64,000 nt of DNA from Escherichia coli (GTDB taxonomy: Bacteria > Pseudomonadota > Gammaproteobacteria > Enterobacterales > Enterobacteriaceae), in the NCBI RefSeq assembly GCF_003334815.1, contig NZ_QOWO01000017.1. One strand, given 5' to 3'. This document shows positions 1-3,028 of this stretch, in pieces. The notes under the pieces are model-generated. The model was not told the DNA's origin, did no database searches, and saw only the letters and a list, made by a program, of their open reading frames with translations. The first letter of the stretch is position 1. Each line of letters opens with the position of its first letter. The translations under genes were made by a program, and so were the position numbers.

Positions 1-49
1 ATGGCTCATGATGTCCCTCTGGGATGCGCTCCGGATGAATATGATGATC

Positions 50-2602
50 TCATATCAGGAACTTGTTCGCACCTTCCTTAGCTGAAACTGTTTGTATTCC
101 GCCGTCGTTAATTGTTGTCTCATTCGCCACACCCTCGACAATTTGTTCACCGCCGGTGAGCGTCGTGCCTGTCGCAGTGGCTTTTGTTTTGACGATCTCC
201 CGTCCGCCCATATTGACCTGTGTTTTGTCAGAAGAGGTGTCTGACTCCACGGTTAACACGCCGCCATTTGCCAGCAGGATATTGTTCGCCGCACCCTGCT
301 CGATGCTGAACGCGACGCCATCCGCGCGTGTTCCTGTGACCCGCGTCGCCCTGGTGGTTGCAACCAAAGCGCCCTGGCTACTCTGCTGTATCCCCGTTGC
401 GCTGCCTTTCTCCCGCACATCGAGTGTGCCGCCGTCATTAAGCACCGAGTTTTCAGCCAGACCGCCCTCATTAACTACCTGTGAACCCCCATTAATAATG
501 GAACCTTCCGCTGTCCCGTTTGCCATAATTTGTTGTAGGCCAGAGACGATATCGGTATTGATTGCCTTACCATAATTCTGAACGGTTTGCGTGCCACCAT
601 TGATGTGTGTTTTCTCTGTTGACCCACCATCAACAATTTGTTCACCACTTTCGATATTTGCTTCAGTGGCTAAACCATATACCGTTTGCTTGCCACCTTT
701 GATATTTGCTTTATCAGAAGTGGCACTGGCATATATTGTTTGGGTGCCAGCACTATTGAGTACAGTGCCAACATCTTTTCCATAAACATCCATTTTGCCG
801 TTGGCATTAATAATCGTGTCAACTGCGCGGGAACCAGTGACGACTGTTAATGAGCCAGCGTTTTCCAGCACTACATTTTTAGCTTCTGAATTCCTGATGT
901 AGAAAGCATCACCATAACTGTTAGTTCCTTCGATAAGTGTTCCGGAGGTCGTGGAAGCAATTAATGCGCCGCCGGATTGTTGCTCAACATGCTTAGCCTC
1001 ACCACCGTCCTGAACCTCCAGAACGCCGCCATTATTAAGTCTGGTGCTATCTGTTTTAGCCTCCTTCTGGACAATCAGCTTACCGCCAGTATCAATGGTA
1101 GTATTTTTCGCCGAGGTTTTAGCCACTACCGTCAGTTCGCCGGTATTTTCCAGCACAACATAATTAGCCTCCCCTCCGGTAATAGTGAAGTGAGAGAGCT
1201 TGTTGTATCCTTCGATATCAGTCCCTGCACCCGTGTTGGCAACTAAAGCACTGCCCGTCTCCTGGTTAACCCCATGTGCAATACCGCCGGTATAGACAAT
1301 CAGCGAGCCTCCGGCGCTAATATTGCTGCCAATTGCCGTACCATCTTTCTCAACAACCTGCCGGCTCCCGGAGGATATAATTGTTGTGTCAGCTTTCCCG
1401 CCGCTTTTGATATTTTGCGTTCCGCTGTTGATATTGGTGCCTGTGGCTATGCCATAATTATTAATATTCTGTGTGCCACCATTAATTATGGTATTTGTCG
1501 CGTTTCCTGCAACATCCATAACCCCGCCATTATCTATTCGGGTCGCATCAGCTTTAGCATTGGTTAAAACTGACATTGTTCCTTTATCTTTAATAATCGT
1601 CTTGTTTGCCGAACCATATGCGTTTATGTCTAAATGACCACCGTTTTCCAGCAACACATTGTCTGCCACGTGATTGTGGATGGAGAATGCACCTTCACTA
1701 TTCGTACCGCTCACCGTCGTACCGTTAGTGTTAGTTTTTAAAATTGCACCATCGTGCTGGGTAACATTTGTTGCCGTACCACCACTAACATCAAGCACGC
1801 CACCAGAATAAACTTCAATAACATCCGAGGTGCTGGTGTTATCAACAATTTGCGTGCCACCAGAATAGATATGCGTATTTTTTGCCGTTGACTTACTATT
1901 CAGAGACTGAGTTCCGCCTTCAATCGTCGTGTCCAGCGCACGGCTCTCATATACTCTTTGCTCACCGCCATTTTTAATGGTTGTTGTTTCTACTGTGCTC
2001 TGTTCAACATACTGTCGACCACCATTTATGGTTGTGTTCGTTGCCAGACTTCCTTGTACTACGTCCTGAGAGCCAGACTTATTTATCGTTGTACCATCAG
2101 CATGCCCTTGAACTTTTACTATCTGGCTACCACCATCAATGAGTATTCCATTCGCACTCCCTCCCTCTACGCGTGAAGCACCGCCCTTAATTGTCGTTCC
2201 ATTGCTGATACCCCCTTTATAAACGTCCTGATTGCCACTCTCGATTGTCGTACCTGTGGAAATACCCCCGTCATGAATTGACTGTCTGCCACCGTTAATG
2301 GTTGTATTATTAGCCTGCCCCACAAAATTGTTATGACTTCCTATATCTTGATATCCACCAGATTCAATAAGACTTCCATTAGATACCCCGCCATGAACAT
2401 TCTGCTGGCCATGGTTGATAATATGAGTGTTATTTGTTGTACCTCGTTCATCCACTTTTTGGTTGCCATCTACAGTCTCATCGTTTACCACACCAATAAC
2501 ATTAGTAGTGAAGGCAGCCATCCCGGGCGGGGCATATATCAAGGCAGATATCAATAAGGAAAGTACTGAGCGGCGACAATAATAGGGACTGGTCCTGTTC
2601 AT
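50..2602 (-). CDS. ypjA: Adhesin-like autotransporter passenger region (AIDA/YpjA-like, repetitive G/T/N/S-rich beta-helix repeats); ends at TGA 50-52, no beta-barrel domain in window
   Basis: ORF track 50..2731; start moved to ATG 2600-2602 (MNRTSPYYCRRSVLSLLISALIYAPPGMAA signal-peptide-like N-terminus, AGGA about 8 nt upstream); ~19-aa degenerate repeats (TTINGGxQxV...); symbol from synteny only. Confidence 0.55.
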   Translation of the reverse strand: MNRTSPYYCRRSVLSLLISALIYAPPGMAAFTTNVIGVVNDETVDGNQKVDERGTTNNTHIINHGQQNVHGGVSNGSLIESGGYQDIGSHNNFVGQANNTTINGGRQSIHDGGISTGTTIESGNQDVYKGGISNGTTIKGGASRVEGGSANGILIDGGSQIVKVQGHADGTTINKSGSQDVVQGSLATNTTINGGRQYVEQSTVETTTIKNGGEQRVYESRALDTTIEGGTQSLNSKSTAKNTHIYSGGTQIVDNTSTSDVIEVYSGGVLDVSGGTATNVTQHDGAILKTNTNGTTVSGTNSEGAFSIHNHVADNVLLENGGHLDINAYGSANKTIIKDKGTMSVLTNAKADATRIDNGGVMDVAGNATNTIINGGTQNINNYGIATGTNINSGTQNIKSGGKADTTIISSGSRQVVEKDGTAIGSNISAGGSLIVYTGGIAHGVNQETGSALVANTGAGTDIEGYNKLSHFTITGGEANYVVLENTGELTVVAKTSAKNTTIDTGGKLIVQKEAKTDSTRLNNGGVLEVQDGGEAKHVEQQSGGALIASTTSGTLIEGTNSYGDAFYIRNSEAKNVVLENAGSLTVVTGSRAVDTIINANGKMDVYGKDVGTVLNSAGTQTIYASATSDKANIKGGKQTVYGLATEANIESGEQIVDGGSTEKTHINGGTQTVQNYGKAINTDIVSGLQQIMANGTAEGSIINGGSQVVNEGGLAENSVLNDGGTLDVREKGSATGIQQSSQGALVATTRATRVTGTRADGVAFSIEQGAANNILLANGGVLTVESDTSSDKTQVNMGGREIVKTKATATGTTLTGGEQIVEGVANETTINDGGIQTVSAKEGANKFLI

Positions 2603-3028
2603 AAATTTCATCCTCTGAAAAGTGAATACTGAGTAGCGTTTAAGCGACCTTAGCTTTGCTGCAACATCAGCCCACAGGCACCAGACCAGGGGATTCATCC
2701 TGAAGAGACAGCGCAAGTGTATTGTGTTCACCGCTCATCAAAGACATCATGATGAAATGATGATATTCCGCATAAGAATGAGGCATTTTTTAAACGCAGT
2801 GCGCTGAAGTGTGGTTGGATAAAAAAGTCAATCCATTCAGGAAATACGGGCGTATTCTTTTCTTTCGACAATGAGGCCGTTGGCAAAATAAAATGATTTA
2901 CATAATCGTTTCTGATGAATATCTTCTGCTCACATAAAAATCACACAATAACTTTGAGATCGCAGATTGTTTTACTTTTACAGCATTCGTCCCCCCATTG
3001 TTGGGCAAATATAGATTGGGCCAGAGCA

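Follow-up and report, generated by a model that had tools for sequence, protein, structure and literature searches.

ISKpn26 supplies the premature stop of a YpjA-type autotransporter reading frame at one end of an Escherichia coli sequence window

Background

Why should a gene encoding a long, repeat-rich autotransporter passenger end without the translocator that normally follows it? The question is raised by one end of a 64,000-nucleotide (nt) stretch of contig NZ_QOWO01000017.1 from the Escherichia coli assembly GCF_003334815.1, hereafter the window, in which a minus-strand open reading frame (ORF) rich in AIDA repeats stops shortly before the window edge. Our analyses support an interrupted copy of ypjA (also known as ehaD) as the answer: the allele is almost certainly an insertion-inactivated pseudogene, in which the insertion sequence (IS) ISKpn26 lies within the adhesin gene and provides the stop codon.

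In type Va secretion, the beta-barrel must sit on the same polypeptide as the passenger. Reviews present YpjA/EhaD as an AIDA-I-type autotransporter that promotes biofilm formation and whose passenger is predicted to be beta-helical (PMC9289746, PMC12547504). ISKpn26, for its part, has been described as active and often carried on plasmids, and as disrupting chromosomal loci for surface structures in Klebsiella (PMC12492035). An earlier reading of the window from its letters alone (the sequence-only reading) had recognized a YpjA-like autotransporter ORF without a barrel and suggested that it may be a nonsense-truncated pseudogene or a strain-specific allele. Here we examine where the homology to ypjA ends, what lies beyond that point, which domains are lost, and how far alternative causes of the truncation agree with the locus.

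Results and discussion

The reading frame and its start

As given in the ORF listing of the window, the frame covers positions 50 to 2731 and encodes 893 amino acids (aa) from a GTG, ending at a TGA that appears as TCA on the plus strand. RefSeq orthologues start at the ATG at 2602 (MNRTSPYY...) and not at the GTG at 2731, and the actual coding sequence fragment is therefore 50..2602, that is, 850 aa plus the stop. A codon-by-codon read-out of the DNA past the TGA showed the frame to remain open from 49 to 2, over the 16 codons DHHIHPERIPEGHHEP. When the product was compared residue by residue with intact YpjA, the two agreed over residues 1 to 841 and diverged from residue 842 onwards. The N-terminal segment, inspected by eye, combines a basic n-region, a hydrophobic core and a small-residue cleavage motif, and is the same as that of intact YpjA.

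The homology to ypjA ends at an ISKpn26 terminus

The gene side of the junction is unambiguous. Window positions 78 to 2602 aligned by blastn with the intact ypjA of E. coli C at 99.96% identity over 2525 nt, the lone nucleotide difference, at window position 923, leaving the protein unchanged; near-identity and chromosomal position thus both identify the gene as the ypjA orthologue. The alignment to the E. coli C allele is perfect down to the TTAG at 78-81, with no homology before it, and in a megablast survey of window positions 1 to 3000 against 5,426 complete E. coli genomes the intact YpjA/EhaD genes matched only from about position 72 on. The three top matches of that survey seemed to span the whole query but proved to be separate pieces joined together.

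The remaining 77 nt belong to ISKpn26, being identical at 77/77 positions to the end of a reference copy of the element (locus L001, 7215-8410). The same 77 nt occur in 1,842 of the 5,426 complete genomes, at up to 43 places per genome and with 1,236 of the places on plasmids, and among the matches listed all were annotated as 'IS5-like element ISKpn26 family transposase'. In the reference copy the transposase coding sequence (WP_000019448.1) begins at position 8342 of the locus, equivalent to window position 9, and the transposase ATG (window 9-7, minus strand) lies 40 nt past the TGA of the adhesin ORF. The 16 codons after the stop are consequently part of the untranslated leader with which the IS precedes its transposase ATG, and the last nine codons of the ORF together with its stop are likewise supplied by ISKpn26 leader sequence. 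No more of the element falls within the window.

The ORF continues past ypjA nt 2525 directly into the abutting ISKpn26 and stops within it, codon 842 spanning the junction and KEGANKFLI being the nine residues read across it and within the IS. The join falls at a tetranucleotide of the YTAR type, directly abutting the terminal inverted repeat; YTAR is the target preference of the IS5 group. Two other ISKpn26 copies that we examined are flanked on both sides by CTAA/CTAA duplications, and the TTAG at 78-81 presumably represents one copy of a 4-bp target-site duplication.

These alignments bear directly on the proposal of a point nonsense mutation converting a sense codon to TGA. A premature stop is indeed present, which is all that the proposal can claim, but that stop and the nine codons preceding it are ISKpn26 and not ypjA, whose homology ends at window position 78, and the alignment thus refutes a nonsense origin, to which we give next to no credence. 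As regards the sequence-only reading, its description of an ORF ending at TGA with no beta-barrel agrees with the ORF listing, Pfam and NCBIfam, and its remark that the 16 downstream codons are open and unlike passenger repeats is explained by their being the ISKpn26 leader. Its 'nonsense-truncated pseudogene' was right about a truncated pseudogene and wrong about nonsense, the TGA aligning to no ypjA codon and window positions 1-77 being ISKpn26. An unrelated gene after the stop was one of the findings that it had named as refuting its interpretation, and this holds in part, since the ISKpn26 transposase begins close behind the stop.

Domains retained and lost

The retained part of the protein is a recognizable passenger. 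Pfam searches of the window ORF found eight AIDA repeats (PF16168) at E<=1e-3, four of them at E<=1e-20 and the best at 1.4e-25, and NCBIfam added the TIGR04415 repeat with 231 bits, indicating similarity to passengers of the AIDA-I/Ag43 kind. The window ORF therefore has the beta-helical AIDA-type passenger that is one feature of type Va autotransporters. Neither the Autotransporter domain (PF03797) nor Pertactin was matched in it by Pfam, and the NCBIfam barrel model (TIGR01414) gave no match in it either; the other two features of the type, a barrel on the same polypeptide and a Pertactin-like autochaperone, are accordingly missing.

The intact allele is 1526 aa long and holds passenger and barrel in a single ORF. 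Its residues 843-1526 comprise one more AIDA repeat, Pertactin, a proline-rich linker and the beta-barrel, the last at residues ~1265-1504; Pertactin (PF03212, E 7.7e-46) is confined to the part that the window ORF lacks, and the Autotransporter domain (PF03797, E 1.4e-46) and TIGR01414 (325 bits against a cut-off of 16) fall in the same part. The window ORF is thus a fragment of a member of the type Va family, and not a functional member. It keeps the putative signal peptide and ~810 residues of AIDA-repeat passenger, and has lost the 12-stranded beta-barrel translocator.

A further explanation to be considered was a natural division of the system between two genes, one for a passenger ending at this stop and one for the translocator; the sequence-only reading had listed a separately encoded translocator among the findings that would refute it. 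The comparison leaves such a division practically no room: intact alleles with 99.96% identity carry the barrel within one 1526-aa ORF, and the DNA past the stop is an IS transposase gene. Two other suggestions of the sequence-only reading fared well, namely that this is a YpjA-type autotransporter of the AIDA-I family without its C-terminal translocator, and that it is a strain-specific disrupted allele, intact 1526-aa alleles with Pertactin and beta-barrel being found in near-identical strains.

A reproducible junction, absent from the complete genomes searched

Exactly 77 nt of a multicopy repeat stand at the start of the window, as would be seen at the end of a short-read contig, and 77 is a common largest k-mer of assemblers; an assembly artefact, with an IS end wrongly joined to ypjA at a contig end, had therefore to be weighed. 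A tRNA-Arg array elsewhere in the window, shorter than in the complete chromosome of strain CFS3292, would be compatible with the collapse of repeats. Three further public contigs, drawn from different data sets, nevertheless show the same junction, and the join directly adjoins the terminal inverted repeat at a target proper to IS5-type elements, so that we regard an artefact as very improbable. The window start itself may be the end of a short-read contig, and sequence upstream of it might not exist in that assembly.

The three public draft contigs encode exactly the 850-aa chimeric product and are listed for about ten samples together: CBDBYT010000083.1 of the NCBI assembly GCA_965212685.1, and one Logan contig each from SRR3823859 and SRR36257559. 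The first matches the window over 5,911 nt without a mismatch and extends 118 nt into ISKpn26 before it ends, while the Logan contigs carry 27 and 25 nt of the element; all three end inside the IS. Since the data sets differ, the junction is reproducible and no quirk of this window. A product with the alternative start MKFMNRT... was not on record.

In the set of 5,426 complete genomes the uninterrupted site was found in 2,836 with a 241-nt probe, and the complete IS-ypjA junction in none with a probe made of window positions 1-260. An exact-pattern scan with a 43-nt junction sequence returned no match in the GTDB representative genomes or the JGI metagenomes. Absent from the complete genomes but present in a few draft data sets, the junction could be used as a lineage marker.

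The nearest relatives of the window give a time frame for the event. Window positions 2600 to 27000 are 100% identical to several complete chromosomes, among them that of CFS3292, the nearest relative, whose ypjA is intact at 4581 nt; with the gene uninterrupted there, the insertion is recent relative to the divergence of the strains.

Mode of insertion and state of the far side

We propose that ISKpn26, a 1196-bp member of the IS5 family, transposed into chromosomal ypjA/ehaD at the CTAA/TTAG site formed by gene nt 2522-2525 (codons 841-842), and that element and gene point the same way. Reading then runs from ypjA into the IS end, through the nine codons KEGANKFLI, to the TGA located 26-28 nt inside the element. 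If the insertion was a simple one, the right end of ISKpn26 (...CTTATTCGCACCTTCC) would be joined on the far side through a CTAA to CGGAGAGGCAATAAAA..., where ypjA resumes at nt 2526. The 3' part of ypjA most likely still lies beyond the element in this way.

Two observations weigh against an insertion of this simple kind. With 77 nt of the IS in view, the second junction, the other copy of the duplication and the 3' part of ypjA all fall outside the window; and the far-side products that it predicts (NDLL.., DLL.., KNSL.. and a TTG-start MGRNDLL...) were in no case found on record by exact look-ups, which carry little weight. The two points can also be counted in favour of an IS-mediated deletion or rearrangement, in which the 3' part of ypjA, with the barrel, was deleted or moved through recombination between IS copies or an adjacent deletion. 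Further observations would be in keeping with such an event. In strain FORC_081 an IS1A lies in ypjA and the gene past nt 3148 has been replaced by other DNA, ypjA adjoins a variable island near ssrA, and some genomes hold up to 43 copies of ISKpn26. On the other hand, the join is at the canonical YTAR target, as for a primary transposition, a comparable case in strain HZ13 is a clean insertion with a duplication, and an adjacent deletion would itself begin from such an insertion, leaving the cause of the truncation unchanged. The far-side look-ups, moreover, succeed only when contig edge, gene call and allele are all matched exactly, and their negative outcome is therefore no argument for a deletion. 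On balance we consider a deletion or rearrangement unlikely, though it is the only alternative with an appreciable probability, and retain the simple insertion of ISKpn26.

As to the product, a passenger needs a covalently attached barrel and autochaperone to cross the outer membrane, and the fragment would therefore be periplasmic and not displayed. From the biology of type Va secretion, the 850-aa product would be exported to the periplasm but be non-functional and probably degraded.

Recurrent interruption of ypjA and its meaning

The window ORF stands in the same locus as YpjA/EhaD of K-12 and enterohaemorrhagic E. coli (EHEC), with the same neighbours (a 39-aa ORF, a recombinase remnant, the ypjCB pseudogene and the ileY tRNA) and the same AIDA-repeat passenger; it differs in lacking residues 843-1526 and in ending in nine IS-derived residues. 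Other strains show comparable damage. HZ13 (NZ_CP128609.1) also carries ISKpn26 in ypjA. This is a simple insertion, oriented as here, into a CTAA target that was duplicated (4 bp), but it lies at ypjA nt 815-818 and hence goes back to an independent event. A further independent event is that of FORC_081, in which the element is IS1A and lies at ypjA nt 2851-2859, upstream of the loss already mentioned. According to megablast matches, ypjA is interrupted by IS1 in PCN061 and EH08-18-36, and RefSeq labels the IS-split pieces of ypjA in other strains as pseudogenes. Strain 160-11H1 has an ISKpn26 copy about 1 kb from an intact ypjA. Outside E. coli, the same IS5-family element inactivates a chromosomal surface-structure gene in the capsule locus of Klebsiella pneumoniae (PMC12492035), a case that differs in host species and target gene.

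The event in the window is thus of an already-known and ordinary kind, IS-disrupted adhesin genes being commonplace and routinely annotated as pseudogenes. The insertions at different sites in several strains suggest that IS elements inactivate ypjA recurrently. It is tempting to see in this an advantage of losing a surface adhesin or antigen in some lineages, that is, adaptive convergent loss and not neutral decay; we hold this to be a rather doubtful extension.

For annotation, the correct label is a ypjA pseudogene interrupted by ISKpn26, neither a novel barrel-less adhesin nor a nonsense allele, and the source strain should be scored as ypjA-negative in adhesin or virulence-gene typing. 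The locus adds one more case in which ISKpn26, often carried on resistance plasmids, has disabled a chromosomal gene for a surface structure.

Table 1. Coordinates of the junction, the interrupted gene, neighbouring features and comparable insertions (window positions unless a locus is named)
Feature	Position	Strand	Basis
Left, transposase-proximal end of ISKpn26 (IS5 family), corresponding to nt 1120-1196 of the 1196-bp L001 copy	1..77	-	100% identity
Start of the ISKpn26 transposase, codons ATG AGC CAT (M S H), cut off by the window edge	1..9	-	L001 alignment
TGA stop of the chimeric ORF, 26-28 nt inside the IS end	50..52	-	sequence read-out
Chimeric truncated ORF: 841 YpjA residues, KEGANKFLI and stop	50..2602	-	residue comparison with intact protein
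Terminal inverted repeat GGAAGGTGCGAACAAG (minus-strand reading)	62..77	-	sequence; matches outer end of the L001 and L003 ISKpn26 copies
Target tetranucleotide TTAG (CTAA in gene sense)	78..81	.	once in intact ypjA, ...CTCTCCGTTAGCTGAAAC...
5' fragment of ypjA/ehaD, nt 1-2525 of 4581 (codons 1-841 and 2 nt of 842)	78..2602	-	blastn
Putative Sec signal peptide, ~residues 1-30, MNRTSPYYCRRSVLSLLISALIYAPPGMAA	2513..2602	-	read by eye
Recombinase-family remnant	~3010-3177	-	kept in related strains
ypjCB (DUF5507-DUF5508), two adjacent ORFs (263 aa, 160 aa)	3514-4887	-	
tRNA-Met(CAT)	5638-5713	-	ARAGORN
naRNA4	28010-28087		Rfam
MicA	34685-34756		Rfam
Tandem tRNA-Arg(ACG) array by tRNA-Ser(GCT)	37667-38114		
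ISKpn26 in ypjA of HZ13	L003 5220-6415		locus comparison
Interruption of ypjA by IS1A in FORC_081	L004 8742-9752		locus comparison

The surrounding chromosome

Over its full length, from ypjA to hycF, the window is collinear with CFS3292 and therefore represents ordinary E. coli core chromosome. The DNA on the other side of ypjA varies among strains, where a SIR2 gene, prophage-like genes and ssrA are found. Just upstream of ypjA, the recombinase-family remnant lacks both ends, as would fit a ypjA that borders the remains of an old mobile element near ssrA. The two ORFs of ypjCB correspond in related strains to a RefSeq pseudogene with an internal stop, a condition shared by E. coli C, CFS3292 and FORC_081.

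Among the RNA genes, the tRNA that ARAGORN called tRNA-Met has a tRNA-Ile as its RefSeq orthologue; we take it to be of the ileY type, with a CAT anticodon that is modified to read AUA. The tandem tRNA-Arg array, of the argQZYV type, contains two Arg copies against four in CFS3292, which reflects either a real contraction or the collapse of short-read repeats. The small RNA MicA and naRNA4, a nucleoid-associated RNA derived from repetitive extragenic palindromes (REP), both lie at their expected core-genome positions and are unremarkable.
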